Positions 3,313 through 49,942 of a stretch of DNA of 64,000 nucleotides are shown here, piece by piece (positions within the stretch are counted from its first letter, which is position 1; every line of letters starts with the position of its first letter). The notes under the pieces were generated by a model, which had not been told where the DNA came from, made no database searches, and was given only the letters and a program-made list of their open reading frames with translations. Origin of the DNA: Clostridia bacterium (GTDB lineage Bacteria; Bacillota; Clostridia; Christensenellales; DTU072). Both the position numbers and the translations under genes were made by a program. The stretch lies in contig JAFVRJ010000001.1 of assembly GCA_017504305.1 (NCBI GenBank), forward strand, positions 13,562 through 77,561. The letters run 5' to 3'.

Positions 3313-4181
3313 TACGCCCCCTTGTACTCGATGCGGTCGAGCTTCTTGATGCCACCATCCAATACGTATACTTCAAACCTATCGCTATACTCGTGTATGA
3401 GCGTATTTGGTTCGACGGCAGACATATAAATTTTAGGTTCTTCTTTGGGCACTTGGACCTCCCTTTCCGATTGCATATAGTCGAATTTGGGTGTTCCGTA
3501 TGCTCCGTTTAGGTTTCCTAAATAATCGTTTTGCGATGATCTAACGGGAGAGTATCCGTCATCGTAAACTTCTTCCGACAGATCGAGCGTAGGGTTATAT
3601 TCACCCCTATAACCGCTTCCTGCGCGGTCGTACGGCGCGCTACTATATGCACGCTCTATCGCTTGATCACGGAGCTTTTCTTCGAGTTTACGTTCCGCCC
3701 TTATTTCATAAAGGCGTTGTTCTTCCTCTCTTACGCGTTCCTCTCGCTCGAGCTCCTCTTGCTTGAGTTCTTCGCGCCTTCTTTCATACTCCTTGCGGGT
3801 TTCGTCGCCAAGTTGGGCGTAACGACGGCTTTCTTTGCGGTAGTTTTCCTCCGCCTTTTTAGCTTCCTTTTCGCTCGACTTGAGCTTTTCCTTTTTCTTC
3901 TTGCGGTGTTCTTTGGTGCTTATCCTATGCGCTATTACAAACGACAGCAACACCGAAAAACCAAATCCGATAAGGTACAACGTGGGATATAATCCGCCTG
4001 CAAAGGGGTTGAAATCCCATATCAAATTGAGTATTGCGCCAAACGCTGCGTACACCAAGGCAACGGAAAATAGCTTACCTATGGTAAGTACTATTTTCGC
4101 TATTATCTTTGCAATCATAATGATAACTTCCGTTACCGCTTTGAGTGCGCCGAGAATTATGCCTGATTGTACCGGTAGCAT
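3312..4181 (-). CDS. hypothetical membrane protein with a long charged (K/E/R) coiled-coil segment
   Basis: Two or three N-terminal TM helices are followed by about 100 aa of an EKLK/EERR-rich region. I recognise no family. Confidence 0.5.
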   Translation of the reverse strand: MLPVQSGIILGALKAVTEVIIMIAKIIAKIVLTIGKLFSVALVYAAFGAILNLIWDFNPFAGGLYPTLYLIGFGFSVLLSFVIAHRISTKEHRKKKKEKLKSSEKEAKKAEENYRKESRRYAQLGDETRKEYERRREELKQEELEREERVREEEQRLYEIRAERKLEEKLRDQAIERAYSSAPYDRAGSGYRGEYNPTLDLSEEVYDDGYSPVRSSQNDYLGNLNGAYGTPKFDYMQSEREVQVPKEEPKIYMSAVEPNTLIHEYSDRFEVYVLDGGIKKLDRIEYKGA

Positions 4182-9327: not shown

Positions 9328-9330
9328 TAG

Positions 9331-9455
9331 TTAAAACTCGCAAATTGGCGACCTCCTTAAAAAAGCGTACTTATTGCTCGGTCATTTACATAGGTAAACT
9401 CTCGTCGCAATTTCGCACGCCTTTTGTCGTATCTCATCCAATTTGCGAGTTTTAA
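9331..9455. repeat. 125-bp element bounded by perfect 18-bp inverted repeats (MITE-like; related to the array units)
   Basis: TTAAAACTCGCAAATTGG at 9331-9348 is the exact reverse complement of 9438-9455. The interior contains AGCGTACT and GGTCATTTAC, which resemble the conserved loop words of the repeat family. Confidence 0.7.
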
Positions 9456-9585
9456 AACGCTATGATATTGCTTTTTTGCCTCATAATACAAGTAAAAATG
9501 TTTTGTTGAAGTTTGTCGATTAAAAACTATGTTTTTAGGGTAACGCTTGTTGTGTTTTGGGTGTGTATGCATTATATGCTTGAGC

Positions 9586-9958
9586 ATATGGACCACAAAG
9601 AAGCAAGCAAGACGAATAAATACAAAAAACCACAACGAGAGCGTGTTTGACGTACGTGACTTGTAGAGGGCTTTGATTTTGTGGTGTATTGCGGTGCCCA
9701 TGCGTGGGATTAGACCGCGTAGAAGCAAGCAAGACAAATAAATACAAAACCCCACGACGGGAGTGTACTTGAACGTACATGACCGAGTGAGGTTTTTCTT
9801 GTTTGGGAAGATTGCGAGGTTTGTGCGTGGTATTAAACCGCGTAGAAGCGAGCAAGACGAAGAAAACGGCGCACTCCCCGATATGAGCGTACTTGGTCGT
9901 ACGTGATTGAGGGGGTGCGCCTGTTTGATGCAGTATTGCGAAGCTTATCCGCGGTTTA
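9586..9958. repeat. tandem array A of the ~123-bp hairpin repeat family (3 units plus degenerate remnants upstream to about 9500)
   Basis: Unit starts are TGGACCACA 9589, TAGACCGCG 9711 and TAAACCGCG 9834. All share GAAGC(A/G)AGCAAGAC and GAG(C/T)GT(A/G)(C/T)T-N4-CGTAC(A/G)TGA(C/T) cores. The array ends in the inverted copy CCGCGGTTTA at 9949-9958. Confidence 0.9.
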
Positions 9959-11777
9959 AAACGGCTTTGATACGACGCACACCCGCCGAAGAACTTTGCT
10001 CTTTTTGAATTTTGAACTTGCCGAGTTCGGAAGTCTTGGATGCATGAGGTCCGCCACAGATTTCCTTGCTGTAGGTGCCGATGGAGTAAACTTTTACGAG
10101 CTCGCCGTAACGATCACCGAATACGCCGATAGCGCCTTGTTCACGAGCCTTTTCAACAGGCATTTCTTCGCAAGTAACGGGGATATCGGATGCGATAACT
10201 GCGTTAACTTCATCTTCAACGGCCTTGATTTCTTCAGGAGTCAAGGGGCGAGAGAAGTTAAAGTCTACACGGAGTCTTTCAGAGGTGATGTTACTACCCT
10301 TTTGCATAACGGTTTCGTCGTTCAAAACCTTGCGGAGAGCTGCAAGCAAAATATGGGTTGCGGTGTGGTAGTTGGTGGTTGCTTCGTTTTGCTCGGTAAG
10401 ACCGCCCTTTGCAGCTTGAGCTTGTGCCTTGGAAAGTTCTTGGTGTGCTTTGAATGCTTCGTTAAATCCCTTTTCATCAACGGTCAAACCTCTTTCGTCT
10501 GCAAGCTCGATGGTTAGCTCGAGGGGGTATCCGAAGGTGTCGTATAATCTAAAGGCTTGTTTGCCGGAAATCTCGGTTTCGGGTACGTAACTCGGGTCTT
10601 TTTGGGACATAAACTCGTTCTTACGTTGCATACCGGAAATAATTTTTTCGAACTCTTTCATACCGCCGGCAAGGGTAACTTCGAACTTTTTAATCTCTTT
10701 GGTGATCTCATCTAAAATGTAATCTTCCTTTTCTACAAGGAGGGGATAGGCTTCGTCGTAAATCTTTTCGATAAAGATTTTAGCAACTTCACACATCTCG
10801 GTTGCGGGGATGCCGAGATTCTTTGAGTATCTGATAGCACGGCGAAGAAGTCTTCTCAAAATGTAGCCTGCACCGGTGTTGGAAGGAACGATTCCGTTGA
10901 CGTCACCGATAAGCATAACAGCAGTTCTCGTGTGGTCCGCGATAATTCTCATCGCCTTGGTATCCGCTTCGTTTACGCCGTATGCTTTGCCCGATGCGCT
11001 CTCTAAATGAGCGATAGCACCTGCAAAAAGGTCGGTCTTGTAACCATCGTCCAATCCGTTTAAGAAGAGAAGCAATCTATCAAGACCGAAGCCGGTATCA
11101 ACGTTTTTGTTCTCGAGTTCTTCGTACTTACCGCCTTCAAGTTTCTTGTATTGCATGTAAACGTCGTTGCCGATTTCAACGTATCTGCCACAATCACAGT
11201 TAACGTCGCAAGTGTCACAGCAAGGATTATCGTGACGGGGATAGAACCACTCGTTATCAGGTCCGCAAGGAGTGCCTACGGTACCTTCGAGTTCCCACCA
11301 GTTATTGGATTTATCTAAATAGAAAATGTTTTCGTCCTTGATGCCGAGTTCTTTGAGGTAGGATGCCGTTTCTTCATCGCGAGGAGCAGCGTTATTGCCC
11401 TCGAAAACGGTGGAGCAAATCTTGTCCTTATCAAATCCGAATACTTTTGTCAAAAGTTCAAACGACCAAGCGGTTTTTTCCTTTTTGAAATAATCGCCCA
11501 AACTCCAGTTACCCATCATTTCAAAAAAGGTAAAGTGGGTAGCATCGCCAACGGAGTCGATATCAACCGTTCTTACGCAACCTTGAACGTTGCAAAGTCT
11601 GGTGCCCATGGGGTGCTTTTTACCAAGAAGATAGGGCATGAGCGGTTGCATGCCGGCAACGTTAAACATTACGCCGGTAGTACCGTCGCCAATAAGCGAA
11701 ACTGCACCGATATTGGTGTGGCCTTTGCTTTCGTAAAACTTAATCCATTTTTCTCTTAATTCTTTTGATGTAATCAT
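9945..11777 (-). CDS. alaS: alanine--tRNA ligase, short form (610 aa; catalytic, tRNA-recognition and editing domains; no C-Ala domain)
   Basis: Motifs FTFFEMMGNWSLGDYFK, DTGFGLDRL, editing HTATHILLAAL and CGGPH. The protein ends ...AGVRRIKAVLNRG right after the editing domain. Confidence 0.9.
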   Translation of the reverse strand: MITSKELREKWIKFYESKGHTNIGAVSLIGDGTTGVMFNVAGMQPLMPYLLGKKHPMGTRLCNVQGCVRTVDIDSVGDATHFTFFEMMGNWSLGDYFKKEKTAWSFELLTKVFGFDKDKICSTVFEGNNAAPRDEETASYLKELGIKDENIFYLDKSNNWWELEGTVGTPCGPDNEWFYPRHDNPCCDTCDVNCDCGRYVEIGNDVYMQYKKLEGGKYEELENKNVDTGFGLDRLLLFLNGLDDGYKTDLFAGAIAHLESASGKAYGVNEADTKAMRIIADHTRTAVMLIGDVNGIVPSNTGAGYILRRLLRRAIRYSKNLGIPATEMCEVAKIFIEKIYDEAYPLLVEKEDYILDEITKEIKKFEVTLAGGMKEFEKIISGMQRKNEFMSQKDPSYVPETEISGKQAFRLYDTFGYPLELTIELADERGLTVDEKGFNEAFKAHQELSKAQAQAAKGGLTEQNEATTNYHTATHILLAALRKVLNDETVMQKGSNITSERLRVDFNFSRPLTPEEIKAVEDEVNAVIASDIPVTCEEMPVEKAREQGAIGVFGDRYGELVKVYSIGTYSKEICGGPHASKTSELGKFKIQKEQSSSAGVRRIKAVLNRG

Positions 11778-16651: not shown

Positions 16652-18727
16652 TTATGTTGCCGGTTTTGCGACCATAATTTCGCCAGCCTTGGTTGCACTC
16701 ACTTCTTCGTCGTTTAACGTATATAACTTCCAGCCTTCGGGAAGAAGGATGTTTGAAAGCTCTAAATTGTCGTACGAAGGCATAATATTGAAGCTACTTC
16801 CGGCATAATCCCATATGACGATAAAGGCGTCGTTTGTTCCAAAAACAACGGGGATTTCTTGATAAGAGCCTGCAAACGCATATTCCGTGCCCTCAAACTT
16901 TACGGTGTCGGCAGATGCATAAATGGCAACGCCATAGTTTACGCCTTCGAGCGTTCCGCCTTTTATCGTAAGCGTGCCGGAGTTGTTAACGGCAACGTCG
17001 TTAATGCCTATGAGTTTACCTCCGTTCATCGTGAAGACTGATGCTTCTTCGTTGGCAACGGTCATATATCCGGCGCCAGTTATGGTTCCGCCGTTCAAGA
17101 TGAGCGTGCCTTGATTTTTGATGGTGGTATTGTTGGTGCTTGTAATCGTTCCGCCGTCAACGGTTATGGTGCCGTCTAAATTGTGTATTGCGTTACTCGT
17201 GCCGTCGATAGTTCCGCTCTTGAGGGTTAGCTCTCCGTAGTTCATTATTGCCCAATCGCCCGTGCCTTTGATTGTACCGCCACCAATAGTAATGTTAGCG
17301 TTATTTTGCATTACGTATGAGCCCGTACCCGAAAGGGTATAGCCTGCAAGGTCAAAGTTGATGGGTTGATCTGCCGTGGCGTGAACGATGCTTGCGCCGA
17401 TATTAATATTTGCACCGAGGGTTACGTTACCGCCCTTTTGTAAAGCTTTTTGAAGCTCTTCGTAGGTATCGATAACTCCGTCGTCAACGATTTCCTCTTT
17501 AGCTATTATAGTTTCCTCTGCTTGGACCGTTTCGATGGCTTCGTCGTCATAATCATAGAGCGCCCAGCCCTCGGGGAGTATTACGTTAGAAAGAGGCATG
17601 AAGCTCGTTGCCGGTACGATTTTAAAGCTTTCGCCCTCAAATTGAGATATGTCGATACGCGCCTCGTTTGCATACCAACGTACGGGAGCGGTAAGACTAA
17701 TAAGATTTAGGTTGCCACCGACAAATTTTACCTTGCCACTAATTGCAAGAACGGCATAAGAACCGCTGATAGTTCCGTTAGCAACTGTCAACTCGCCTTC
17801 GTTGATGATTAAAGTGGTTGCGGTGCCCGAAAGAGTATAACCGGCTAAATTGAAGTTTGCCACAACGCCTGAAGGCACGTGAGCGCTTTCTATACCGAGA
17901 TTGATATTTGCGCCGAGGGTTACGTTACCGCCCAGCTCAAGTGCCGCTTGCAAGCCCTCGGCCGTCAAAACGAGGTAGGTATTGGTATCTCTATAGTAAA
18001 TATAACCGAACGAATACGGGCAGTTATCGCAAACGCCGTCTTCGTTGAAGTCTTCGTGGTTGGGTTTAGCCTCAATTGCTATTTGGCTACATGAGATACA
18101 ATATTCTGCAGTGGTGCAATCATCGTCTCCTACTTGAGGAGTGTGGGCTGGCTTCGCCTCAATCAGTACCGTGGGACAGTAAACGCATACTACCGCGGTA
18201 GTACAATCGTCGTCATCGCTTTCTTCTACGTGTTGGGGCTTGGCATACGTTAAGATAGTGGGGCAGTGGCTACAAGTTATTGCCGTGGTGCAATCGCCGT
18301 CATCCTCGTTTGCAATGTGGTTGTCCTTTGCCGGAGTAATTACCGTATGGCAAACGTTACAAACGGTAGCAGTGGTGCAATCGCCATCGTCAAGTGTCGG
18401 GACGTGGTCGGGGTTTGCATGAACTATTACCTCACCACATTGCTTGCAAGTTATTGCCGTGGTGCAATCGCCGTCGTCATCCATCGGGGAGTGTCCGGAG
18501 GAAGGTTCCCCGACTGTACCACAATTATTGCAAATTGCAGGATTGTTGCAGTCTGCCGGCTTCCATTGGTGAGATACCGCTCTACCTTGACCGCAAGAGT
18601 TGCAAGTTTCATCGCAATCATTGTCGTATACGTGGCTACAATCGGTCTCGCCACAAGCCGTTAAGCATAACGTTATGCATAGCGCAATAGCGCACGCTAT
18701 AAAAAGTGCCTTTAGTGTCTTTTTCAT
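16652..18727 (-). CDS. Cys-rich surface lipoprotein: five ~29-aa C3H repeats plus two beta-helix-like Gly/Thr-rich modules
   Basis: Lipobox LCLTAC. Repeats follow the pattern H-x5-DDGDCTTA-x2-C-x2-C (for example DDGDCTTAITCKQCGEVIVHANPDH). This is followed by duplicated segments of the type GGNVTLGANINxG...LAGYTLSGT. Confidence 0.7.
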   Translation of the reverse strand: MKKTLKALFIACAIALCITLCLTACGETDCSHVYDNDCDETCNSCGQGRAVSHQWKPADCNNPAICNNCGTVGEPSSGHSPMDDDGDCTTAITCKQCGEVIVHANPDHVPTLDDGDCTTATVCNVCHTVITPAKDNHIANEDDGDCTTAITCSHCPTILTYAKPQHVEESDDDDCTTAVVCVYCPTVLIEAKPAHTPQVGDDDCTTAEYCISCSQIAIEAKPNHEDFNEDGVCDNCPYSFGYIYYRDTNTYLVLTAEGLQAALELGGNVTLGANINLGIESAHVPSGVVANFNLAGYTLSGTATTLIINEGELTVANGTISGSYAVLAISGKVKFVGGNLNLISLTAPVRWYANEARIDISQFEGESFKIVPATSFMPLSNVILPEGWALYDYDDEAIETVQAEETIIAKEEIVDDGVIDTYEELQKALQKGGNVTLGANINIGASIVHATADQPINFDLAGYTLSGTGSYVMQNNANITIGGGTIKGTGDWAIMNYGELTLKSGTIDGTSNAIHNLDGTITVDGGTITSTNNTTIKNQGTLILNGGTITGAGYMTVANEEASVFTMNGGKLIGINDVAVNNSGTLTIKGGTLEGVNYGVAIYASADTVKFEGTEYAFAGSYQEIPVVFGTNDAFIVIWDYAGSSFNIMPSYDNLELSNILLPEGWKLYTLNDEEVSATKAGEIMVAKPAT
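18050..18505 (-). repeat. in-frame 87-bp tandem coding repeats (C3H modules)
   Basis: GGTGCAATCGCC(G/A)TC recurs at about 18288, 18375 and 18462, an 87-bp period that corresponds to the DGDCTTA repeats. Confidence 0.7.
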
Positions 18728-25019: not shown

Positions 25020-26396
25020 TTACGCTTCTTGTTCGCTTGATACGTACAAGGTTTCGGGATGCTTCTTTTGGTAGAGATATGCGCCGATAATCGGGATAAG
25101 GGTAAGTAGAGCTACGCAAGCTGCAATAAGGAATAAGTGCCACGAGGGAGTGTAACCGGGAACGACCGCGCCGTTTTGCTCCATCTCGGCAATATAGATG
25201 CCGAGGTTATTGACGATAGGCTCGGCAATAACGGGGCCGGAAATCATCGGTACGAGCACGTAGAACACAAGTCTTACGCCCTCAAGCTGTCCGCGTTGGG
25301 ATTCAGGATAGAGGTTTTTACACCAAATCATAAGCGCTTGATAGATGCACATATATCCACCGCCGACAAAGATAACGCCGAGTATTACTACTGCGGTCAT
25401 GGCAGCACCCGTTCCACTCAACGCGCCGGTGATACTAATTATACCCAAGCCTACAATGTTCATAAGCAATGCAACGATTAGCACGGGAACAAACTTTTGT
25501 TTGTTGATAAACTTGCCTGCGATGAGGGTGAAGGGGATAGCAATAACAAGACCAACACCAAGCCATACACCGGCGATACCGGTATCATATCCCAAGGAGT
25601 GGATGAAGTAAATGGTCATGTAAGGGAAGTAGATGTTAAAGCTAATGAAGAACATTGCAAAGATGCAAAGAACTATAAGGAGTAGCTTATTTTGCCAGAG
25701 TAATTTAAAGTTAAAGGCTTGAGCGAATTGATGCCAAAAGCCCTTTTCATCAACGTTGGGGCGGAGGGTGGGAGCATCTTTAACCGCCCACATGCAGTAA
25801 ACGCCTACCAAAATAACGAAGGTGCCCATGATGAGGAAGAAGGCGAAGTAGCCTACCGCATCGATGATGATACCGCCGATAAGAGTTCCTACGATGGTTG
25901 CAAGAACGGGTTGAACTGCAATAACAGCGCCGAGAGGTCCACGGTTTTCGGGGGTGGTGATATCGGTAAGGTGGGGGTTGAAGCCGGCATCGTTACCGAG
26001 AGATCCGAAGAAGGACATAAGAGCATCTGCAACAACGACCATCAAGCCGAGAGCTACGACGTTGCCTGCAAGGGAGCTACTTTCTGCGGTAAAGAAATCT
26101 ACAACGCCGAAAAGTATAGTGAATATACCCCAGAAGATATAACCCCAAACGATAAAGGGTTTACGTTTACCGAGGCGATCGCTCCACGTGCCGGAAAGGA
26201 AGGTGGAGAAGGTGGTAACGATTGCAGAAACGGAAACCATTGCGGTAATAATCCACGGAACTGCACCGATTTTACCATAAACGAAGGTGTTAAACCATTG
26301 GTTTTCGATATTCCAAGCGAGCTGACCTGCAAGGCCTGCAACCCAAATAACGATCCACGTTTTAGCACCGAGGCCGGATTTCTTTTTTTCGGACAT
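25020..26396 (-). CDS. MFS-type transporter (458 aa)
   Basis: About 12 TM helices. It has the loop motif WSDRLGKRKPF (D-R-x-G-R-R-like) typical of MFS/GPH transporters. Confidence 0.75.
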   Translation of the reverse strand: MSEKKKSGLGAKTWIVIWVAGLAGQLAWNIENQWFNTFVYGKIGAVPWIITAMVSVSAIVTTFSTFLSGTWSDRLGKRKPFIVWGYIFWGIFTILFGVVDFFTAESSSLAGNVVALGLMVVVADALMSFFGSLGNDAGFNPHLTDITTPENRGPLGAVIAVQPVLATIVGTLIGGIIIDAVGYFAFFLIMGTFVILVGVYCMWAVKDAPTLRPNVDEKGFWHQFAQAFNFKLLWQNKLLLIVLCIFAMFFISFNIYFPYMTIYFIHSLGYDTGIAGVWLGVGLVIAIPFTLIAGKFINKQKFVPVLIVALLMNIVGLGIISITGALSGTGAAMTAVVILGVIFVGGGYMCIYQALMIWCKNLYPESQRGQLEGVRLVFYVLVPMISGPVIAEPIVNNLGIYIAEMEQNGAVVPGYTPSWHLFLIAACVALLTLIPIIGAYLYQKKHPETLYVSSEQEA

Positions 26397-26512: not shown

Positions 26513-26893
26513 TATAAGACCGCGGAGAAGCGAGCAAGACAAACAAAAATAAAAAGCCCCCAATGGGAGCGTACTAATACGTACGTGACCTGCAGGGTGC
26601 TTTTATTTGGTTATGATATACTGCGATAATCATATGCCGTCGGTTAGACCGCGGAGAAGCAAGCAAGACAAAGAAAAGGGCGCAGCCACGACACGAGCGT
26701 ACTTGACGTACGTGACCTGCAGGGAGCTTTTATTTTGTGAAGTATTGCGATGGTTATATCGGCCGATTAGACCGCAGAGAACCGAGCAAGACAAACAAAT
26801 ACAAAACCCCACGACGGGAGTGTACTACGACGTACATGACCGAGTGGGGCTTCTGTTTATTTGTGAAGTATTGCGATGGTTATATGCGGTCTA
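26513..26893. repeat. tandem array B of the hairpin repeat family (3 units; periods 129 and 123 bp)
   Basis: Unit starts are TAAGACCGCGG 26515, TAGACCGCGG 26645 and TAGACCGCAG 26768. The array ends with the inverted GCGGTCTA at 26886-26893, whose CTA is the complement of the M20 gene's TAG stop codon. Confidence 0.9.
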
Positions 26894-28324
26894 CTTGTAA
26901 GAGCGTATAAACTCTTTATAAAAACAAACACACTCGCCTACGTTCCAAACCTTAATATGCTCGTTGGCATTGTGGATGGTGGCGTATTGCTTGGAATCAA
27001 GGTCTATGGGAGCAAAACGAAGGATGGCGTCGGCTACGTCGCCAAGGTGGCGAGCATCGGTGCCGGCAGTTAAGATGAAGGGCGAAACTATTACGTCGGG
27101 GAAGTTTTTGTTAAGGACGGCTTTAAGCTTCTTAAACTGCTCGGAATCCACCTTTGAGGGCACGCAATAGTCACGTTCGGTTTCCCTAACTTCGACATTG
27201 TACTTCTTGGCAATCTCTTTAAAAGCTTCGATTTCCTTGTATAGAGTATCTTCCCTAATGCATCTGAAGAAGGCGGTTGCCTTTGCTTCAAGCGAAGTGC
27301 CTTCGATCTTTGTAAAGCTCATGGTCGTCGATAGCATTGCGCCTGCAACGGGGCTTACTTTACCCATAAGGTTAAGGAGTAGCTTTTTGAAAATGCAGAA
27401 GTTACTAAAGACAATCCTTAACGGATAAGGCATATACGGGGCGTGGGTGCGGAAGGTCGCTTCCACCTCGGGAGCAAAGCCCTTTTTGAATATCTTGCTA
27501 TCTTTGACTTCAGAAATGAAAGCGGAAAGATTATCGATAGCGTTTTCTTTGGTGGGGTTGAGACCTACGTGGCCCTTTTCACGCTTGGTGGCAACGCACT
27601 CGTAACGATGACGTCCCTTTTCGTGGACGGCTACCATTGCGCTCTTTTCCTTGACACCGGGCATCATCTTCTCGGTGATAGCTCCGCCCTCGTCAAGAAC
27701 TACGTCAAAGTGAAGACCTCTTTCCAAAAAGTATTTGTGGACCTTGGGGAATCCGTCACCGGCAACTTCTTCGTTGTTGGACGATCCTATAAAGACGTTA
27801 ATACCCTCAAAGTCGTATCCCTCTTTGAGAAGCTCCTCAACCGCCATAAGCTCTGCAAAAAGCGGTGTCTTGGTGTCGATGGTCCCCCTGCCGTACATCG
27901 CTCCGTCAACGACTTTAGCTTCAAATGCGGGATGCTCCCACTCCCCTTCATCGATTACTACGTCGTGGTGGGACATCAAAAGAATATTCTTTACGGCGTT
28001 TTTACCGCTTATTTCGTATAGAAAACAGCCGTCAAAATCGTGCTTAACTGCCTTTGCGGTTAAAGTGGGAAAACGATCTTCCAATACTTTATAGAATTTT
28101 TTGTACTCATCGGCATAAGTTCCTTGCTCGTCGTAAACGGTTTTGCAACGGATCATGTCGGCAAGAACTTCAGTATATTCTTTGAGTTTTTCTTCCGAAA
28201 CGTTTTTGCGGGTAGCGTTTACCGTGACGCGAGCTCTACTCGAAAGAAGGGCTTTTATGAGGATATACGCTAAAAATATAACGGTGCATCCGCCAATAAC
28301 GGAGCCGACAATTATACCGCCCAT
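26891..28324 (-). CDS. M20 family metallopeptidase with N-terminal membrane anchor
   Basis: LLMSHHDVV, GRGTIDTKTPL and SSNNEEV(A)GDG motifs match the ArgE/DapE/CPG2-like family. An N-terminal TM helix is present. Confidence 0.8.
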   Translation of the reverse strand: MGGIIVGSVIGGCTVIFLAYILIKALLSSRARVTVNATRKNVSEEKLKEYTEVLADMIRCKTVYDEQGTYADEYKKFYKVLEDRFPTLTAKAVKHDFDGCFLYEISGKNAVKNILLMSHHDVVIDEGEWEHPAFEAKVVDGAMYGRGTIDTKTPLFAELMAVEELLKEGYDFEGINVFIGSSNNEEVAGDGFPKVHKYFLERGLHFDVVLDEGGAITEKMMPGVKEKSAMVAVHEKGRHRYECVATKREKGHVGLNPTKENAIDNLSAFISEVKDSKIFKKGFAPEVEATFRTHAPYMPYPLRIVFSNFCIFKKLLLNLMGKVSPVAGAMLSTTMSFTKIEGTSLEAKATAFFRCIREDTLYKEIEAFKEIAKKYNVEVRETERDYCVPSKVDSEQFKKLKAVLNKNFPDVIVSPFILTAGTDARHLGDVADAILRFAPIDLDSKQYATIHNANEHIKVWNVGECVCFYKEFIRSYK

Positions 28325-41631: not shown

Positions 41632-44130
41632 TTATTGCGGTAACTCTACAGCACACTCCATTTGGAAGGAGTCTGCTTCGCCGTTAGCGGTGGTTACTGC
41701 GATAAGAGTGCTGGTGGATACAGGGATCTCGATGTAGTAAACGCCATTTGCAAGCGTACCTGAAGTAACTTGGTCGGCAAGCGTTGCTTCGTAATCTTCA
41801 TTGGTATCCGTATAGAAACTGATGACTGCGTTAGCATCGCTGATATATACGTAGTATGTTTCAATTTTACTACCTGTTTCAACACCTGCGTTTAAGCTAT
41901 AGTATACGGTTGCGCCTGCATTAACGTTGACGGTTACGCCTGCTTGGGGAGGTGCTTTTATGCCTGCTTCCCAAACGTAAGGAGCGTTTGCAGAGCCGTT
42001 ACGAACAAGTTTAAAGTTGTAGGAGCAATCATAGAATTCTTCGTAGTCGTTCTTACTAAAGCTTACGTACTCTTCCATTTTGGTGTAGCCTTGAGGAACG
42101 GCACCGTTATCAACGCCTACTACATAGTAACCGATGGGACGCTCGTTGAGAGTAAAGATTGCATAACCTTCGGCATTGGTTAAAGCGGTTTCGTGGATGG
42201 TGTAGGTACCACCGTTTGCAATATAAACGGTTACCTCTACGTTAGCAATGGGGGTGCCCTCTGCTGCTACCAATACCTTATGTTCCGCGGTGGTATCTTC
42301 ATAGGTAATGGAGAAGTTGACAATACCATCGCCAACAACTACTACTTCGATAAGATCCTCTGCAAAGAATACGCCGGAAGCCTTTTCTTCGCCGTTGATT
42401 TTGAAGGAAACGTCATCGGTGCTTGCAAGGGTAACTCTGCCGTTAGCGGGCATTGTAAAGGTATAGTAAACTTCACCGGTCTTGATGTTTGGTGAAACAC
42501 TGGTGGGATCACTATCGTTAACGCTTACTTCATAAGGATAAGCTTTAGTGCCCTCTTTAATTACTACTAAATCGATACCGTCAACGCCTAAATCGGCAAG
42601 AGCGGTAATCTTGAGGATGGCGGTTTCGCCTGCATCTTCTTCGAGCGAGATTTGGAACTCGTCGTTTACAACGTCGTACTCGTAGGTGTCGCCGTTGTAA
42701 AGGATGCTAATGAGGTTGGTCGCGGTCTTAACGTGGGTATCTACTGCATTGGGGATAGCAACGTAGACCACTTCGCCCTCGTTGAGTTTAACGTTAAACT
42801 CGCCGTACTCGGTAAGATACAAGGGAGCGTTTGCGCTGGAGCCTTGATCTAAAGCGTCGTTAATATTGATAATACCGGTGATGATGGTGTTCTTGGTGAA
42901 GTTGATAGCGGAGTAGCTGGATCCGTCTTGGAGACCGTTAAGGACTGCTATGTAGTTGCCGTAGGGAGCCAAGATGGTTGCAACACCTGCTTCAACGTCC
43001 GCAGAAGCAACTTCGTTCAAGCTATAATCGTATAGGGAAACGGAAAGTCCATTGTAACCGAGTTGGGGGTTGGTACGAGATACGTTTACAACGTAGCTAA
43101 CTTGAAGCATCTTCATGAATTGAACGCTTACGTTAGTGGTGGTAATTTGTTGAGTGCCTTGATCGTTCTTACCTAACCAAAAGTACTCGGGGTTGCCATC
43201 TTTGTGAGTTGCTACGAGGTAATAGCTATCTTTTACCATACTTAAAGTGAAGGTACCGCTTGCATCGGTGATTTCTTCTTCAACGAGGGTGCCTTGCTTA
43301 TTGTAGACGGATATTTTAATATCAGCCATAGGATCACCACCGAACATATTGGTTACAGAGAAGGTGTAGTTCTCTAAAAAGCCTGCAACGGTAAGGGTTT
43401 CTTCATAGTCGCCCTCATCAAAGTTGAAGTGGGTAACGCCAAGCTCGATGCCGGGAAGAACGGTGTATACGTTGGGGAGGGAGTTGATGGTAATGTAACC
43501 GGCTCCGTTAAGTTGTGTTTTAAAGGTGGTAACGCCGTTTTGGTCGGTAACTTGGGGAAGTAAGCAGTTTCCGCCGATACATACTTGAACTTCTGCGCCT
43601 TCAACGCCGTAGCCGTCGGTATCCTTGAGGATTACTTTGTAATTGTAGTAAACCACTTTAACGATATCGTCAATTACGAGGGAAGTAGAGTTTTTAGCAA
43701 ATTGATAGGGAGCATCGTCGTAATCGTAATCTTCTGGGGCGCTTAAAATAAGAACCTCTTGGAGCTTACCGGGAACGATGCGGAAGGTAGCTTTACCTTG
43801 AGCATCGGTGGTTTTGGTTTCGCCGTTTTTGGTGTCGACTCTGATTTGAACGGAAGCGCCGACTACGGGATTGCCGGAGGTGTCCTTGAGGGTAACGAGG
43901 TACTCGGTTTTGCCGTCGCCTGCGCCGGTATTGCCACCGTCGGTGTTACCGCCGTCAGTGTTACCGCCGTCGCCGGCAGGGGTCATATCGGTAGAACAGT
44001 TATCGCATTTAAGATCGCCGTTAGCGTCAACGTGCTCGGTGCATTTATTGGAGCAAGCAACGAGAGCACACGCCATAACGACTACTAATAAAAGAGAAAC
44101 TATTAAACTGCACTTTTTGAAAGATTTCAT
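41632..44130 (-). CDS. paralogous surface lipoprotein 1 (832 aa): EHVDANGDLKCDNC module, (GGNTD)n linker and multiple CarboxypepD_reg-like beta-sandwich repeats
   Basis: Start at 44130 (AGGAGG RBS). Lipobox ALVAC. N-terminal CTEHVDANGDLKCDNCSTDMTPAGDGGNTDGGNTDGGNT. Segments of the type YxVxLKDTxGxPVxGAxVQ recur. Confidence 0.7.
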   Translation of the reverse strand: MKSFKKCSLIVSLLLVVVMACALVACSNKCTEHVDANGDLKCDNCSTDMTPAGDGGNTDGGNTDGGNTGAGDGKTEYLVTLKDTSGNPVVGASVQIRVDTKNGETKTTDAQGKATFRIVPGKLQEVLILSAPEDYDYDDAPYQFAKNSTSLVIDDIVKVVYYNYKVILKDTDGYGVEGAEVQVCIGGNCLLPQVTDQNGVTTFKTQLNGAGYITINSLPNVYTVLPGIELGVTHFNFDEGDYEETLTVAGFLENYTFSVTNMFGGDPMADIKISVYNKQGTLVEEEITDASGTFTLSMVKDSYYLVATHKDGNPEYFWLGKNDQGTQQITTTNVSVQFMKMLQVSYVVNVSRTNPQLGYNGLSVSLYDYSLNEVASADVEAGVATILAPYGNYIAVLNGLQDGSSYSAINFTKNTIITGIININDALDQGSSANAPLYLTEYGEFNVKLNEGEVVYVAIPNAVDTHVKTATNLISILYNGDTYEYDVVNDEFQISLEEDAGETAILKITALADLGVDGIDLVVIKEGTKAYPYEVSVNDSDPTSVSPNIKTGEVYYTFTMPANGRVTLASTDDVSFKINGEEKASGVFFAEDLIEVVVVGDGIVNFSITYEDTTAEHKVLVAAEGTPIANVEVTVYIANGGTYTIHETALTNAEGYAIFTLNERPIGYYVVGVDNGAVPQGYTKMEEYVSFSKNDYEEFYDCSYNFKLVRNGSANAPYVWEAGIKAPPQAGVTVNVNAGATVYYSLNAGVETGSKIETYYVYISDANAVISFYTDTNEDYEATLADQVTSGTLANGVYYIEIPVSTSTLIAVTTANGEADSFQMECAVELPQ

Positions 44131-44287: not shown

Positions 44288-44557
44288 ATATAGACCGCGA
44301 AGAAGCAAGCAAGAGGAATACAAATAAAAAGCCCCCAATGGGAGTGTACTTTGCGTAAATGACCAAGTGGGATTTGCTTGTTTGTGAAGTATATCGCTAA
44401 AATTATTAAACTGCTAAACCGCATAGTTTAGATGATAGACGAACAAAAATAAAAATCCCCCAATGGGAGCGTACTACATCGTACGTGACCTGCAGGGGGA
44501 TTTTATTTTGTGATGGATATCGCTAAAATATGCGGTTTAGCTAAAATATGCGGTTTA
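44288..44557. repeat. array C of the hairpin repeat family (one full unit, one 5'-deleted unit, duplicated terminal segment)
   Basis: TAGACCGCGAAGAAGCAAGCAAGAG begins at 44291. The second unit has a perfect stem AAAATCCCCC/GGGGGATTTT. The terminal CTAAAATATGCGGTTTA is duplicated (44524-44539 and 44541-44557). The final TTA is the complement of the TAA stop of the 466-aa gene. Confidence 0.85.
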
Positions 44558-45955
44558 ATTGAAGTAATAGCAGGCAAACAACCACGCATCCTCCTCCACA
44601 ATACCTAAAGCGTTAGTGCCGAAAATGTGGGTTTCGGATTCAAGATCCCACCAGCCGTAATAGTCGCCGTAGAGTTGGATGCCATCTTTTAAGCCTTGAG
44701 TGAGGGGGTAAAGACCGTCTTCACCAACTACTTCCAAAATATCTAAAAGGTATTGGTGATAGGATTGCTTGCGAACGAAGTTACCTTCTTCATCGTAAAC
44801 GTAACAGCCAAAGCGGGTATTGGCGGTGAGGTGCTCAAACGATACCCAGCCACCTTCAGGGATGTTGTCGGGGATGTCGTTTAACAATACGTAAAGGATG
44901 GGACCGTCTATAGAATTAAGGTGATAGTAGCCGTCGTTCTCGTTATACACTGCGGTTACGTTGGTGTGAATATCTACGTTGGTGAGGGTTCCACTCTCGT
45001 TTATAACAACTTCGGTGGGAGCGGTTTCGGGTACGTATTCAATCCACGGTTCAGTCGAAGGATCCCATGCAAGGTCACCCACTCTTTCAATCAAAAGGGT
45101 GCCCGTTCCGTTACCTATGATACCCTGAACAGAGAAAACTAATTTTGTGGTGGATGCTTCGATTTCTGCATCGGTAACGCCGGAACCAATGTATTGAGCT
45201 TTAACGGTATAGTTGAAAGACGCCCTATCAATGCGGTCTTCTTCTTCGCAAATATCCTCTTGAACGTAATCGGTTATTCCGCATGAATTAAGCTTTACGC
45301 CGGTGTTTGCAACGTAGCTTATTTTATATTCGCCGGACTCGGAGGGAATCCATACAAAGTAGGTTTTAGCTGTAGTTGTAAACGTCGAGCGGAAGCCACC
45401 GATGCCTCTTACAATATAGCCGTTCGGGCGCTCGTCACCAATACCTGCGAGCATTAGCGATACGGTTTCATCTTCCGATACCTCGCCGTAAAGGGTAACG
45501 GTGGACTCTACTACATCTGCAGTAAGAGTGCAAGCACTTTCGTCATAGTAATAGGTGTCGCCGGTAAAAGTTAAAGTATAGGTGTAGCTATCCTTTACCA
45601 ATCTGATTTGAGCTTTGCCTTCGTTATTGGTGGGCTTGCTTCCCGCCTTCACTTCGCCTTTATAGAAAGATACTATAACGTTAGGCATAACGTTGCCGAC
45701 TGCATCTTTGACGGTTACGGTGTAAGAGGTTTTGCCGTCGTCTACGTCGGTGTTTCCGCCATCGGTATTGCCACCGTCAGTGTTTCCGCCATCGCCTGTA
45801 GGGGTCATGTCGGCAGTGCAGTTGTCGCACTTAAGATCGCCGTTAGCGTCAACGTGCTCGGTGCAAGGCTCGTCGGCATTACAACCGATAAGTGCAAAAC
45901 TCAAGGTGCTAACTACCAATAGGATAACTAATATCTTGGTTAATTTTTTGCTCAT
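44555..45955 (-). CDS. paralogous surface lipoprotein 2 (466 aa)
   Basis: Lipobox ALIGC. N-terminal CTEHVDANGDLKCDNCTADMTPTGDGGNTDGGNTDGGNT. One beta-sandwich segment, then a C-terminal module (DGYYHLNSIDGPILYV...WLFACYYFN) shared with the 958-aa paralog. Confidence 0.7.
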   Translation of the reverse strand: MSKKLTKILVILLVVSTLSFALIGCNADEPCTEHVDANGDLKCDNCTADMTPTGDGGNTDGGNTDGGNTDVDDGKTSYTVTVKDAVGNVMPNVIVSFYKGEVKAGSKPTNNEGKAQIRLVKDSYTYTLTFTGDTYYYDESACTLTADVVESTVTLYGEVSEDETVSLMLAGIGDERPNGYIVRGIGGFRSTFTTTAKTYFVWIPSESGEYKISYVANTGVKLNSCGITDYVQEDICEEEDRIDRASFNYTVKAQYIGSGVTDAEIEASTTKLVFSVQGIIGNGTGTLLIERVGDLAWDPSTEPWIEYVPETAPTEVVINESGTLTNVDIHTNVTAVYNENDGYYHLNSIDGPILYVLLNDIPDNIPEGGWVSFEHLTANTRFGCYVYDEEGNFVRKQSYHQYLLDILEVVGEDGLYPLTQGLKDGIQLYGDYYGWWDLESETHIFGTNALGIVEEDAWLFACYYFN

Positions 45956-47065: not shown

Positions 47066-49942
47066 TTAAGCTTCGGGTCCGATGGTCTCGTAGTAGTAGC
47101 AAAGCTTTGTCCAGCTGTTTACTACGTTTTTGAAGGTATATTTATCCATAAGCTTTTGGAGTATTGTTGCAAGCTCGGCGTTAACCTTAACGCAACCGCG
47201 AATATTTGCATCTTCGGTATAGTAAGGACTATCGGTAGAGCCACCTTCGCCTTCTCCAACGTAAATTTGAGCGTAGTAGCTTAACATGGTTGCGGTATAA
47301 TCGCCACCGCCGTTAACGGGGTTGCCGTCCTCGTCCACACCAAAGTTAAACGCACCACGACCGATTAAGGTGTGGAGGTTTTGAGAGAAGATGCCGGTTG
47401 GTAAGCTTAAATCAAGATAGAGCTCGTTGCCGGGAGCTACGGTTTCGGCGTACCAGCAATCGGTTGCTTGGTCGTAAACAGCCTTAACGCCACCTGCAAT
47501 AATGGTGTTGGTCATTTGCTCATTCTCATCAGTGGTGGTGGTAAATACGCCGGGAGATGCATAACGGAAGATCTTTGCGGTTTCGCCAAGATACTCGACC
47601 TTGAAGTAGAAGGTTCCTACTGCGTATACGTCATAGTACGCGATGTCAATATAATAGGTTTGACCGGCTTCCATATAATAGTACATTTCGACGTTCTTAT
47701 CGTCTACGTCAAGGAGTCTCTTGTAATGATCGTACTCGTATAATTGGATAGATTCGTTCTTATCATAGTCATATTGGAAAATCCAGCCGTCTACTTCTTG
47801 ATCGCTCTTGGATTCAATGCGATATGCGCCGGATACCGTGGGCGTAAATGCATACCAATAACCACGAGGCATTACAACTCGATCGTAGGTAACTTCGTTG
47901 GGGAACTCATCAAGACCTGCCGTTGCATTTGCAATGGTGGGATATGCCGAGAAGGGAGCAAGACCAACGATGGGATCTTGGAGTTCTTCTTCGGTGCCGT
48001 ATGCATCGTAGTAAGAACAGAATTGCAACCAAGTGTTTGCTTCATTATTCTTGTTAACGCGAGCAACTATTTCCAAGAGCTCTTTCAAGCGTTGGTTTAC
48101 TGTACAGAAGCCGTTAATCTTTGCGTTAGAAGAATAGTTGCAGTAGTAGTTGATAATTTCGGGACCATAGTTAACGCCACCTTCGATAACCTTATCGTTA
48201 TAAGCGTAAGTGTATACCGATTCGGTTGCGCTAAAGTTGGAGTAACCCATCATGTTAGCAAGGAGCAAAGGTCCGTTTGCGCTTCCTACGTGATAGTATC
48301 CGTCTTCATTGTTGAATACCGGAGTAATATAGTTTTGGAATCCCAAACCGTATTTATCGGGATGCGTAGCAGCCTCTCTCGGGATGTAGGTGGCAACGTC
48401 GATATCGTCCGCGTCAACAATGCGGAGGTCGTCGATAAATACGTTATCAAGGGTGTTTTTATCAGCGTATGCTTGGTCGCTGTCTTTTAAGAAAATCAAG
48501 GTTACTTTGTAGGTGCCGTCCTCGTTTGCAACGTAGGGATAGCAGGTTTCCCACTCGGTGGACTCACCGGAAATTTGAAGGATGTCGTCACCGTTTACAA
48601 GAACGTAAAGGATGTCGGAGCTTATCTCTGAAGAACAGAAATAATCCATACCGATTGCTTGTCCTGCAGTTAGCGGAATATCCATATGGATAATAGCGTA
48701 CGAGCTATCCATATCGTGGATGGGGGTGGTAAGAACGGTTCTGTCGCCATCGATGGCTACGATAAAGGGCCATGCATATTCTGCATCGTCGGTGCCCGTT
48801 TCGGGATAGAAAGTTACTTCGAAAGCGCTACCCTCTTTTACAAATGCATCTGCAATAACGGAAGACTCCGCTTGGGTGATGTTGGGCTTCGGTATGGGGG
48901 TAAGCTCGCCGATACCGCTCAAAAGTTTTTGCTCGTAATCGTCACCGATAAAGTGATCGAAGGCGGCTTTGAAGGGTTTGGTTGAGGTCATACCACCGAT
49001 TTCGATACAGCAGATAACGCCGTAACGGTCAACAAATATCGAGGTGGGATAGCCGTCGGTGGGGAAGGCGTTGAAGTATGCGGGATCGGCTTTTGCTACG
49101 TCAAAATTCAAACCGTGATTGTATTTGAACAATTGAACGTCTTCTTCGCTATCTTCACTAAAAGTATTTAGACCAATGATCGATACGTCGTCGCTATAAA
49201 GAGCGCCGTCAACTCCGTTTTGATATGCGCCGTATTGCTCTACCATGTAGGGGAACTCCGCTACGCAGTAAGTACAAGTGGTGTACCAGAAGTTGATCAA
49301 AACGAGATCGTGAGTCTTTAGCTCTTCGGAAAGAGTATAGGTTCCGCCGTCGGAAGTGGTTACGGTGAAGTCTTGCATAATATCACCGAGTTTATAGGGC
49401 AAAGGCAAACTATTGTTGGGGTTAGCTATGACGGAAGATGCCAAGGTAACGTTAGCCGTTCTGCCGGTGAATTGATAACCGTCTTCGTCAACTACGTAAC
49501 CATCCGGTACGCTTTGTAAAGTTACTTTGTATCCGGTACTGATAGGTAGCGAAATGGTTGCCTTACCTTCGGCGTTTGTCTTCCCATAGTCCATATATTC
49601 TTCACCTTTCCAAACGTAAGTAAGTACGTCTTTCAAGGGCATTCCGCCTATGGTTTTTACGTTTACGGTATAGGTGCCCGTCGTGGTGCCGTCACCGGTG
49701 CTACCACCATCGTTACCACCGTCGTTGCCACCATCGTTACCACCGTCGTTGCCACCGCCATTGTTACCGCCGTCGGTGTTACCACCGTCGGTAGAGGGGG
49801 TAACTTCTACTCCGCAGTTGTCGCACTTCAAATCGCCGTCTGCATCAACGTGCTCGGTGCATTTATCGTTACATGCAACAAGCATCGCTGTAAGGATTAC
49901 GGCGAAAACGAGGAGTACTGCTATCACCTTGTTTCTCTTCAT
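47066..49942 (-). CDS. paralogous surface lipoprotein 4 (958 aa): thioredoxin-fold domain (CTYC) plus large C-terminal region with duplicated module
   Basis: Start at 49942 (AAGGAG RBS). Lipobox MLVAC. CTEHVDADGDLKCDNC, a (GGND)n linker, LVLINFWYTTCTYCVAEFPY...GYPTSIFVDRYG. The C-terminal DGYYHVGSANGPLLL...W.(Q/K)(F/L)C(S/Y)YY pattern occurs twice. Confidence 0.75.
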   Translation of the reverse strand: MKRNKVIAVLLVFAVILTAMLVACNDKCTEHVDADGDLKCDNCGVEVTPSTDGGNTDGGNNGGGNDGGNDGGNDGGNDGGSTGDGTTTGTYTVNVKTIGGMPLKDVLTYVWKGEEYMDYGKTNAEGKATISLPISTGYKVTLQSVPDGYVVDEDGYQFTGRTANVTLASSVIANPNNSLPLPYKLGDIMQDFTVTTSDGGTYTLSEELKTHDLVLINFWYTTCTYCVAEFPYMVEQYGAYQNGVDGALYSDDVSIIGLNTFSEDSEEDVQLFKYNHGLNFDVAKADPAYFNAFPTDGYPTSIFVDRYGVICCIEIGGMTSTKPFKAAFDHFIGDDYEQKLLSGIGELTPIPKPNITQAESSVIADAFVKEGSAFEVTFYPETGTDDAEYAWPFIVAIDGDRTVLTTPIHDMDSSYAIIHMDIPLTAGQAIGMDYFCSSEISSDILYVLVNGDDILQISGESTEWETCYPYVANEDGTYKVTLIFLKDSDQAYADKNTLDNVFIDDLRIVDADDIDVATYIPREAATHPDKYGLGFQNYITPVFNNEDGYYHVGSANGPLLLANMMGYSNFSATESVYTYAYNDKVIEGGVNYGPEIINYYCNYSSNAKINGFCTVNQRLKELLEIVARVNKNNEANTWLQFCSYYDAYGTEEELQDPIVGLAPFSAYPTIANATAGLDEFPNEVTYDRVVMPRGYWYAFTPTVSGAYRIESKSDQEVDGWIFQYDYDKNESIQLYEYDHYKRLLDVDDKNVEMYYYMEAGQTYYIDIAYYDVYAVGTFYFKVEYLGETAKIFRYASPGVFTTTTDENEQMTNTIIAGGVKAVYDQATDCWYAETVAPGNELYLDLSLPTGIFSQNLHTLIGRGAFNFGVDEDGNPVNGGGDYTATMLSYYAQIYVGEGEGGSTDSPYYTEDANIRGCVKVNAELATILQKLMDKYTFKNVVNSWTKLCYYYETIGPEA
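49703..49792 (-). repeat. in-frame 12/15-nt tandem repeats encoding the (GGND/GGNTD)n linker
   Basis: (A/G)CCACC(A/G)TCGTT occurs four times at 49703-49750, followed by 15-nt variants. Analogous 15-nt triplets are at 43930-43974 and 45752-45796 in the paralogs. Confidence 0.8.

Follow-up and report, generated by a model that had tools for sequence, protein, structure and literature searches.

Array B, at positions 26513–26895 of a 64-kb stretch of the genome of an uncultured rumen Clostridia bacterium (the window, to which all window coordinates refer), consists of three diverged, head-to-tail units of 123–132 nt each, which belong to a distant ERIC-like family in Clostridia. ERIC elements, also known as IRU, were described by Sharples & Lloyd (1990) and Hulton et al. 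(1991), and ERIC-PCR has been in use for strain typing for >30 years. ERIC, IRU and RU-1 are names of one and the same kind of repeat, imperfect palindromes of ~127 bp (PMC2759123, PMC2229807, PMC3184786, PMC10969869). They are repeats of the MITE kind (small transposable elements with inverted repeats), and the copies in the window have the traits of such elements: they are small and non-coding, have terminal inverted repeats and occur in many dispersed copies. From the comparisons given below we consider it likely that the arrays are old, locus-specific scaffolds in which central modules have been replaced by gene conversion, and that unit number in such arrays changes by unequal crossing-over.

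That array B holds three real units, as a preliminary description of this DNA had claimed, is borne out by the agreement of a repeat finder, a hidden Markov model (HMM) and the unit boundaries. At 26533–26887 Tandem Repeats Finder delimits 2.8 copies of a repeat whose period is 127 and whose matches amount to 74%. The HMM built from the units finds eight copies in the window, all on the plus strand, in arrays A (three), B (three) and C (two), and the 23-nt 5' box GACCGCGGAGAAGCRAGCAAGAC has seven matches there with ≤3 mismatches, where 0 are expected by chance. Including the solitary rod wD, there are nine copies in 64 kb, which make up ~1.8% of the window (Table 1).

Table 1. Repeat units and adjoining features of the window, with the matches of the units to the covariance model R1 (see text; the E-values are rough, the calibration having been shortened)
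Feature	Position	Strand	Match to R1	Remarks
Array A	9586..9960	+		minus-strand genes on both sides: AlaRS (alanine-tRNA ligase) upstream, secA downstream
Unit A1	9586–9707	+	no match	
Unit A2	9708–9830	+	partial; 28.5 bits; E 1.5e-5	
Unit A3	9831–9960	+	full length; 58.8 bits; E 2.6e-14	
Unit B1	26513..26641	+	partial, 26547–26608; 30.7 bits; E 3.3e-6	module type P (GCCCCCAATGGGAGCGTAC...); degenerate 3' end, incomplete rod; fold z = −3.2
Unit B2	26642..26764	+	full length, 26641–26762; 27.6 bits; E 2.5e-5	module type Q (GGGCGCAGCCACGAC...); degenerate rod, folds no better than shuffled, z = +0.5
Unit B3	26765..26895	+	full length; 39.8 bits; E 8e-9	module type R (CCCCACGACGGGAGTGTAC...); intact rod, −58.6 kcal/mol, z = −9.3
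M20 peptidase gene	26891..28324	−		stop codon overlaps end of B3
MFS transporter gene	25020..26396	−		downstream of array B
Promoter-like TTGACT-17-TACAAT	26453–26425	−		for MFS gene; just beyond B1
Array C	44288..44557	+		minus-strand genes on both sides: Ig-like domain protein upstream, large Ig-like + macroglobulin-type protein downstream
Unit C1	44288–44411	+	partial; 17.5 bits; E 0.022	
Unit C2	44412–44541	+	full length; 57.4 bits; E 6.8e-14	followed by terminal duplication
wD	9330..9458	−	full length; 26.2 bits; E 6.4e-5	solitary ninth rod of different sub-type; 18-bp perfect terminal inverted repeats (TTAAAACTCGCAAATTGG / CCAATTTGCGAGTTTTAA)

An intact unit is a single rod of ~125 nt (A3: −57.0 kcal/mol, z = −5.7), and B3, A3 and the copies from other Clostridia all fold as single rods with z between −4.0 and −9.5. 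The rod starts with a basal stem ACCGCG / CGCGGT (TAGACCGCG.../...CGCGGTCTA), which is followed by a 3x3 internal loop and the pairs AAGC / GCTT. Above these come a G-A / G-A loop, GCAA / TTGC and a variable middle stem, in the window lineage flanked by A-rich and T-rich tracts. At the top are GG / CC, a second G-A / G-A loop and an apical stem of 6 bp, GYGTAC / GTACRT, in which a G-T pair (G-U in RNA) is conserved and which closes a loop of variable length; the only variation in the apical stem is one compensated pair. Among the window units, only the decayed A1 and the variant C1 are without the apex GGAGYGTAC-N4-9-GTACRTGAC. The units begin and end with TA, reading TA-GACCGC...GCGGTC-TA.

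The apex, the two internal-loop motifs, the size of the units, their TA termini and the stop-codon orientation rule described below place the window units with ERIC/IRU, a membership that the preliminary description had not recognised. Both are long imperfect-palindrome rods of nearly the same size (~127 bp in ERIC, 123–132 nt in the window), both are intergenic and both lie at the 3' ends of genes. The apical core of the E. coli element, GGAGCTTAC-ATAA-GTAAGTGAC, has the same plan as GGAGYGTAC-loop-GTACRTGAC in the window, and the E. coli variant of the core is also found in one copy from Clostridia (L013). The conserved central inverted-repeat core of ERIC (in E. coli ...CCCCAGGAGCTTACATAAGTAAGTGACTGGGG...) has its counterpart in the apex of the window units. 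The loop motifs, CAAGG and (G/A)ACGCAG in ERIC, are kept in the related Clostridia copies as ACAAGG and GACRCAG, and the termini carry TA. There are also differences: the window termini read TAGACCGCG... rather than TATACCC... as in E. coli, the middle stem of the window lineage has the flanking A-rich and T-rich tracts, and the window units stand in head-to-tail arrays of 2–5, whereas no description of tandem ERIC arrays was found in the literature reviewed.

Between the E. coli and the Clostridia elements stand intermediate sequences. A scan with the apex motif (GGAGYGTAC-N4-9-GTACRTGAC) yielded ~13 real rods in phage contigs of IMG/VR and, among the matches listed, >100 rods of the same architecture in metagenome contigs; motifs outside the search pattern, namely CAAGG in the 5' arm and (G/A)ACGCAG in the 3' arm, recur in the metagenome rods. 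One metagenome copy, located beside istR (L114), has as its core GAATCCCCAGGAGCGTACATAGGTACGTGACTGGGGTGAG, which is the ERIC core, and matches the Rfam family V_AS5 over its full length, if below threshold (46.5 bits, E 3e-7). Elements of this type are present in 5426/5426 complete E. coli genomes at a median of 10 places per genome. The E. coli ERIC downstream of panC likewise gives a full-length, sub-threshold match to V_AS5 (49.8 bits). The published consensus of the E. coli ERIC (RU-1), 127 nt long (Delihas 2007, Table 1a; PMC2759123), aligns end to end with the phage and metagenome rods.

The rod is maintained by compensated changes. An alignment of 32 sequences, in which the E. coli consensus stands with rods from phages and metagenomes and with no sequence from the window or its Clostridia relatives, was scored on a rod of 46 pairs, with 500 shuffles and the sliding of partners as nulls. 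Standard pairs fill 73.6% of the cells (54.3% when shuffled, 34–40% when slid), both sides of a pair have changed in 360 cells (153 when shuffled, 129–186 when slid), and the covariation score is 0.434 (0.161 when shuffled, 0.117–0.171 when slid); on each of the three measures, all 500 shuffles stayed short of what was observed. The covariance model built from this alignment, R1, matches every unit of the window other than A1, four of the eight arrayed units and wD over their full length (Table 1). When the Clostridia set was aligned to R1, 80.4% of the cells were paired, as compared with 64.7% after shuffling and ~35% after sliding. RNAalifold on plain MAFFT alignments recovered the apex alone.

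According to a 2024 review of MITEs, ERIC is found in Enterobacteriaceae and Vibrionaceae (PMC10969869), and the reviews consulted treat the family as restricted to these two. The window host, a Clostridia bacterium, lies outside both families, NCBI listing its SecA, AlaRS, MFS and M20 proteins as those of a metagenome-assembled 'Clostridia bacterium', and it does not stand alone. When representative genomes were scanned with the 5' box, 13 real copies came up, every one in a genome bin of uncultured Clostridia, Christensenella, Eubacteriales or Clostridiales; they are single copies which share the boxes and the apex and have quite different middle stems that are nevertheless self-complementary. 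Exact look-ups of flanking proteins assigned further rods to Porphyromonas (L058, L065), Bacteroidales (L099), Bacillota (L056) and Acutalibacteraceae or Oscillospiraceae (L104). The rod-bearing phage contigs range in GC from ~30% to ~68%, and phage rods follow immediately on genes that encode a major head, a tail sheath, a tail tubular or a small terminase protein. In INPHARED the E. coli consensus matched mostly unannotated contig fragments of two phage records and records of bacterial draft genomes, and a GC-rich phage rod had no match there. A limited literature search found nothing on an ERIC host range of such breadth, and a search of the literature with sequence strings gave no relevant match. 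Host range, tandem mosaic arrays and the sharing of the centre of the element rather than its termini are all points that were not found in the literature consulted.

In each array of the window the upstream gene has its stop codon in or at GCGGTYTA, the terminal sequence of the last unit. For example, the stop codon of the M20 gene (TAG, 26891–26893) falls within the terminal GGTCTA of B3, and that of AlaRS (TAA, 9945–9947) within A3. The position of array B between the M20 stop codon and the MFS promoter had already been given correctly in the preliminary description. At the first loci examined the centre of the element is found, in nearly every case, 54–72 nt past the end of an opposite-strand gene, counted from its stop codon. 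The rule was tested on 119 distinct phage and metagenome rods: with the rod centre ≤90 nt from the nearest stop codon, 45 were antisense and 5 sense (two-sided binomial p = 4e-9), and the distances cluster at 47–76 nt; at 91–400 nt, 16 were antisense and 24 sense. All three window arrays conform to the antisense orientation at the stop codon. The orientation of the panC ERIC can be read either way, the element lying between convergent genes. De Gregorio et al. (2005) reportedly saw the same stop-codon preference in the ERICs of Yersinia, the opposite orientation being favoured far from genes.

ERICs are co-transcribed with genes, and an effect on the stability of the upstream mRNA, dependent on orientation, has been ascribed to RNase E (PMC2229807, PMC3184786, PMC10969869); the orientation of the element is crucial for this effect (PMC2229807). 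Over the three arrays there are seven terminator-like sites on the minus strand, which is the mRNA sense, versus 0 on the plus strand, all of them consensus matches only. It is therefore plausible that in this lineage the units terminate or stabilise the transcript of the gene upstream and shield the promoter that follows. In the P- and R-type units a G+C-rich hairpin is followed by UUUUUAUUU, and the Clostridia relatives from other genomes are without the U run. As far as can be told from sequence, the units of this lineage probably act as 3' hairpins or intrinsic terminators; those of array B would be co-transcribed with the upstream gene and separate the M20 gene from the promoter of the MFS gene.

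For the history of the arrays, the 5' box, the central module and the 3' box of each unit were compared separately. Clustering by locus is absent among the central modules: identity is 62.4% within arrays and 64.1% between them (permutation p = 0.72), and the pairs A2–B3 (84%) and B1–C2 (83%) join different arrays. The 3' boxes do cluster by locus, with 61.5% identity within arrays versus 51.8% between (p = 0.01). The preliminary description had called B3 nearly identical to A2 and had matched B1 with the units of array C. Both likenesses are there in the core hairpin, where B3 and A2 are identical at 39/43 positions, the differences being mostly in the loop, and B1 and C2 at 43/47; they do not extend to the whole units, which are 76–82% identical in the first case, depending on the alignment, and 70% in the second, so that B3, with 73%, is the closest whole-unit relative of B1. 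The statement that neighbours within an array are the more different holds, however: within array B whole units are 65–74% and central modules 58–68% identical, and for 7/8 units the nearest neighbour is in another array. In a neighbour-joining tree A2 groups with B3 (53% bootstrap), B1 with C2 (62%) and A1 with B2 (37%).

The same separation of modules from boxes is seen among strains. Orthologous arrays were taken from strain contigs with flanking proteins at least 90% identical, which together with the window gave 41 units. The clusters of 3' boxes (≥85% identity) are each confined to one locus and largely to one position, whereas module types extend over several loci: R over arrays A, B and C, S over A and B, and P over B and C, Q alone being limited to B. 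In array B the window has the module order P-Q-R, L175 has Q-P-S and L178 has R-Q-R, with the positional 3' boxes largely kept. Array A of L026 contains a unit in which a 5' box of the array-C type and a P-like module are joined to an array-A 3' box, and unit A2 of L033 is an S/R chimaera with mismatched stem halves. A tree of the units, suggested at the outset as a check for clustering by locus, therefore has a divided outcome: whole units and modules are not clustered by locus, and the 3' boxes are, strictly by locus and largely by position. Because positional 3' boxes are kept while modules differ, the arrays point to gene conversion of internal segments together with unequal crossing-over, and not to transposition of whole units. 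The arrays would be old scaffolds, each specific to its locus, in which the segment between the 5' and 3' boxes may be replaced non-reciprocally from other positions or loci. The conserved boxes would supply the homology for the exchange that overwrites the unit interiors, and unequal crossing-over between units would alter their number. This recombination mechanism is inferred from the comparison of sequences.

Several observations weigh against the placement and history proposed here. Aligned pairwise with the E. coli consensus, the window units do not by themselves reach significance (whole-unit z 0.3–3.0), and for the arms without the apex z is ~0–2. V_AS5 (RF02818, Vibrio antisense RNA AS5) is the sole Rfam family that matches ERIC-type rods (those of E. 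coli and L114), but it is a narrow Vibrio model and has no match in the window; the window, phage and Clostridia rods remained unmatched at E up to 10. Rfam as a whole matched nothing in the window at gathering thresholds and nothing of meaning in array B with E allowed up to 10, and it was equally silent on the phage and Clostridia loci. The link to ERIC is for these reasons made through the apex, the architecture, the intermediate sequences and the profile; it is also carried by the loop motifs of the Clostridia copies, the TA termini, the behaviour at stop codons and the shared size. Invariance of the apex in the phage and metagenome sets is by construction, because the apex motif was the search key. 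B1 and B2 have decayed 3' ends, and their full rod no longer closes. The bootstrap values of the cross-locus pairs are modest (53–62%). The G-A loops and the conserved G-U pair belong to the strand that runs antisense to the flanking genes, a poor fit to a simple role in the sense mRNA. Finally, no empty site was seen in related strains by which a duplication of the TA target might be recognised, and no transposase partner is known or was seen at the loci compared, the ORFs of the window being partly annotated.

The preliminary description had preferred transposition or gene conversion to local duplication. Exchange of the central module between loci is supported by the comparisons above and transposition of whole units is not, the 3' boxes being bound to their locus. 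It could nevertheless be imagined that the arrays were built by repeated transposition of whole MITEs of different sub-families, each into the TA with which a resident copy ends. ERIC is reviewed as a mobile element with TA termini and TA target duplication (PMC2759123, PMC3184786), the window units start with TA-GACCGC and end with GCGGTC-TA, and the same sub-families are present at loci 17–35 kb apart. Whole-unit insertion would, however, carry the boxes along, whereas 3' boxes stay with locus and position while modules move; in array B they are kept in three strains with different modules, and neither a transposase nor an empty site was seen. Taken together, this makes an origin of the arrays by transposition unlikely.

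The units could also be plus-strand structured-RNA genes or processing units, with a conserved factor reading the G-A-looped apical hairpin and the arrays being multi-copy RNA loci. The strong covariation would be accounted for, as would the apex common to independently gathered sets with differing termini, and the Vibrio relative is held in Rfam as an antisense RNA family (V_AS5). In plus-strand orientation purine-purine mismatches outnumber pyrimidine-pyrimidine ones by 395 to 73, and the conserved G-U pair is on that strand; the wobble counts (G-T 95 versus A-C 82) single out neither strand, and GC skew did not settle the direction of replication. On the other hand, scanning of the three array regions gave no promoter-like site for the plus strand, within or next to an array, and the units leave no space between them for promoters. 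Strains differ freely in unit number and modules, B1 and B2 are structurally decayed, and no protein gene is consistently associated: all-against-all BLASTP of the open reading frames (ORFs) of the window and 24 other loci gave no common protein family, the window ORFs being partly annotated. RNA genes are thus an improbable explanation, slightly more so than transposition.

Strain comparison for unit-number variation, also proposed in the preliminary description, shows that such variation exists, with from 2 to 5 units in arrays A and C: array A has 2, 3 or ≥4 units among strains, and array C has 2 in the window and 5 in L179 and L180. Array B has 3 units in all strains seen. Many strain contigs end at arrays. 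Another explanation is that the arrays grew by plain local tandem duplication followed by divergence, the cross-locus likenesses being retained ancestral types. Duplication of this kind is evident from three consecutive R-type units in L179 and from the dnaK–dnaJ spacer of a gut species of Acutalibacteraceae/Oscillospiraceae, where strains with identical DnaK have 1–4 near-identical units of 147 nt (L104; L183–L192). But modules of one array resemble each other no more than they resemble those of another array, orthologous positions in close strains have different modules, which argues against duplication as the sole process, and a 5' box and module of the array-C type sit inside array A of L026. 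As the units are not clustered by locus, simple local duplication is not the whole story, and as a full account of the arrays we give it little credence.

Least of all do the units resemble attC-like, folded single-strand recombination sites of an integron or attC cluster. There is a stop codon in the first box, the structured strand is antisense to the upstream gene, and Vibrio cholerae integron repeats are similar in size; but R boxes of the AAC/GTT type (R''/R' RYYYAAC...GTTRRRY) are not conserved at the rod bases across the family, solitary copies lie beside housekeeping and phage structural genes, arrayed units abut with no cassettes between them, and no integrase is among the ORF families common to the (partly annotated) window and the other loci, which makes this reading very improbable indeed.

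Other known repeats are more distant. BIMEs, the clusters of REP units in E. coli, are intergenic palindrome arrays downstream of genes with a strain-variable number of units, and in all this they are like the window arrays. REP units, however, are only 20–40 bp long, alternate in orientation and are linked to Y1 transposases (RAYTs), which sets them apart from the window units. REP units are tagged with GTAG or CGTC (PMC3733652). The BOX elements of Streptococcus pneumoniae, which are listed among the bacterial repeats (PMC3184786), are like the window units in being intergenic, modular repeats of a Firmicute with variable tandem sub-units and a predicted RNA structure; no relation to them in sequence or architecture was seen, and BOX elements are not single 125-nt rods. 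BOX modules, boxA, boxB and boxC, are ~45–60 bp long.

Further candidates were rejected. The G-A pairs are not those of a K-turn, the 3-nt bulge being absent on reading of the sequence. Hammerhead, twister, hairpin and pistol ribozymes, domain V of group II introns and SRP RNA do not fit in motif order, copy pattern or Rfam result, and the same misfit applies to tracrRNA/omega RNA, TIGR arrays, retron RNA, type III toxin-antitoxin repeats, and single-strand origins or promoters. A RAYT/REP system was dismissed as partner since the only transposase seen, a Y1 enzyme, goes with unrelated GTAG-tagged repeats. In one strain its IS200-like gene (PF01797, 25.6 bits, cut-off 23) splits the dnaK–dnaJ array (L185, 3480–4215). 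Upstream of this gene are copies of a palindrome with a GTAG tag, GTAGGGGCGGATATCATCCGCCC, and the reverse complement is found inside it, so the insert looks like a REP-plus-RAYT unit unrelated to the ERIC-like repeats.

What the independently gathered sets have in common is the G-A-looped apical hairpin and the two internal loops, and it is the termini that differ; in each lineage sampled, moreover, the elements lie at stop codons in one orientation. A shared centre with differing termini is the reverse of what is expected if a transposase reads terminal repeats, and would imply that something reads the folded single strand. It is conceivable, though we advance it tentatively and would not yet bet on it, that ERIC is one branch of a family spread over bacteria and phages (Bacillota, Bacteroidota, Proteobacteria and tailed-phage contigs), whose folded single strand, DNA or RNA, is read by a hairpin-specific mobilising enzyme or a conserved host factor. 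According to reviews on ERIC, the means by which these elements are transferred has not been worked out. The relatives in Clostridia, Porphyromonas, Bacteroidales, Oscillospiraceae and phages provide a wider comparative base for asking what recognises the hairpin. Locus-specific flanks with exchangeable hairpins, in numbers of 1–5 units in near-identical strains, offer a measure of conversion and of unequal crossing-over. The arrays are usable as strain markers in metagenomes, for which the unit number in the dnaK–dnaJ spacer could serve as well. It should be kept in mind that arrays of this kind break short-read assemblies and yield spurious ORF calls. An example is array B, across which a frame of 103 codons is open in the window; in two related strains it breaks up differently, into fragments of 50–64 codons, which supports the earlier view that the small ORFs called there are artefacts of the repeats. 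Relatives of the MFS gene at 90% identity have another gene neighbourhood, from which the array is absent.

Some minor observations concern single loci. Two phage rods are found on one contig (L037, 5932–6040 and 9983–10091) and others in L039, L043, L048, L054 and L044, where they occupy the gap behind the genes for major head, tail sheath and tail tubular proteins; related phages have the rod at the same place, with compensatory changes in the stem. Rods also occur inside rRNA operons, between tRNA genes and the 23S gene (L092, ~875–970; L123, 766–787). In four loci of the Clostridia bin CANQNO (L001, L008, L014, L015) a second repeat family of ~215 nt is located inside the 5' box, with an 18-bp duplication (AAACCGCGGAGAAGCGAG), and in L003 and L015 a 22-nt hairpin is inserted in the 3' arm beside the apex.

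Small duplications seem to recur where the element meets the stop codon. The terminus of array C (44522–44557) is an 18-nt tandem duplication (GCTAAAATATGCGGTTTA twice), which includes the stop codon of the upstream Ig-like gene (TAA, 44555–44557), and an analogous 11-nt duplication (GGTCTACTTGT twice) is present at the end of array B in L175 (~3925–3950). The solitary rod wD lies just upstream of a promoter-like sequence of secA, TTGCGT-18-TATAAT, as read by eye. Compared with the window, L030, L031, L032 and L033, the strain locus L027 has the interior of the rod turned round, and L026 lacks the rod altogether; this looks like an inversion polymorphism between terminal repeats. The window also contains repeats that are unrelated to the ERIC-like units. 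In-frame internal repeats, including one with an 87-nt period x5 and others in an ORF of 2434 aa, are found in large ORFs of both strands (18090–18481; 43871–44043, 45693–45865 and 49689–49861; 54750–56700), and repeats of 173 nt are common to the neighbouring ORFs around array C.

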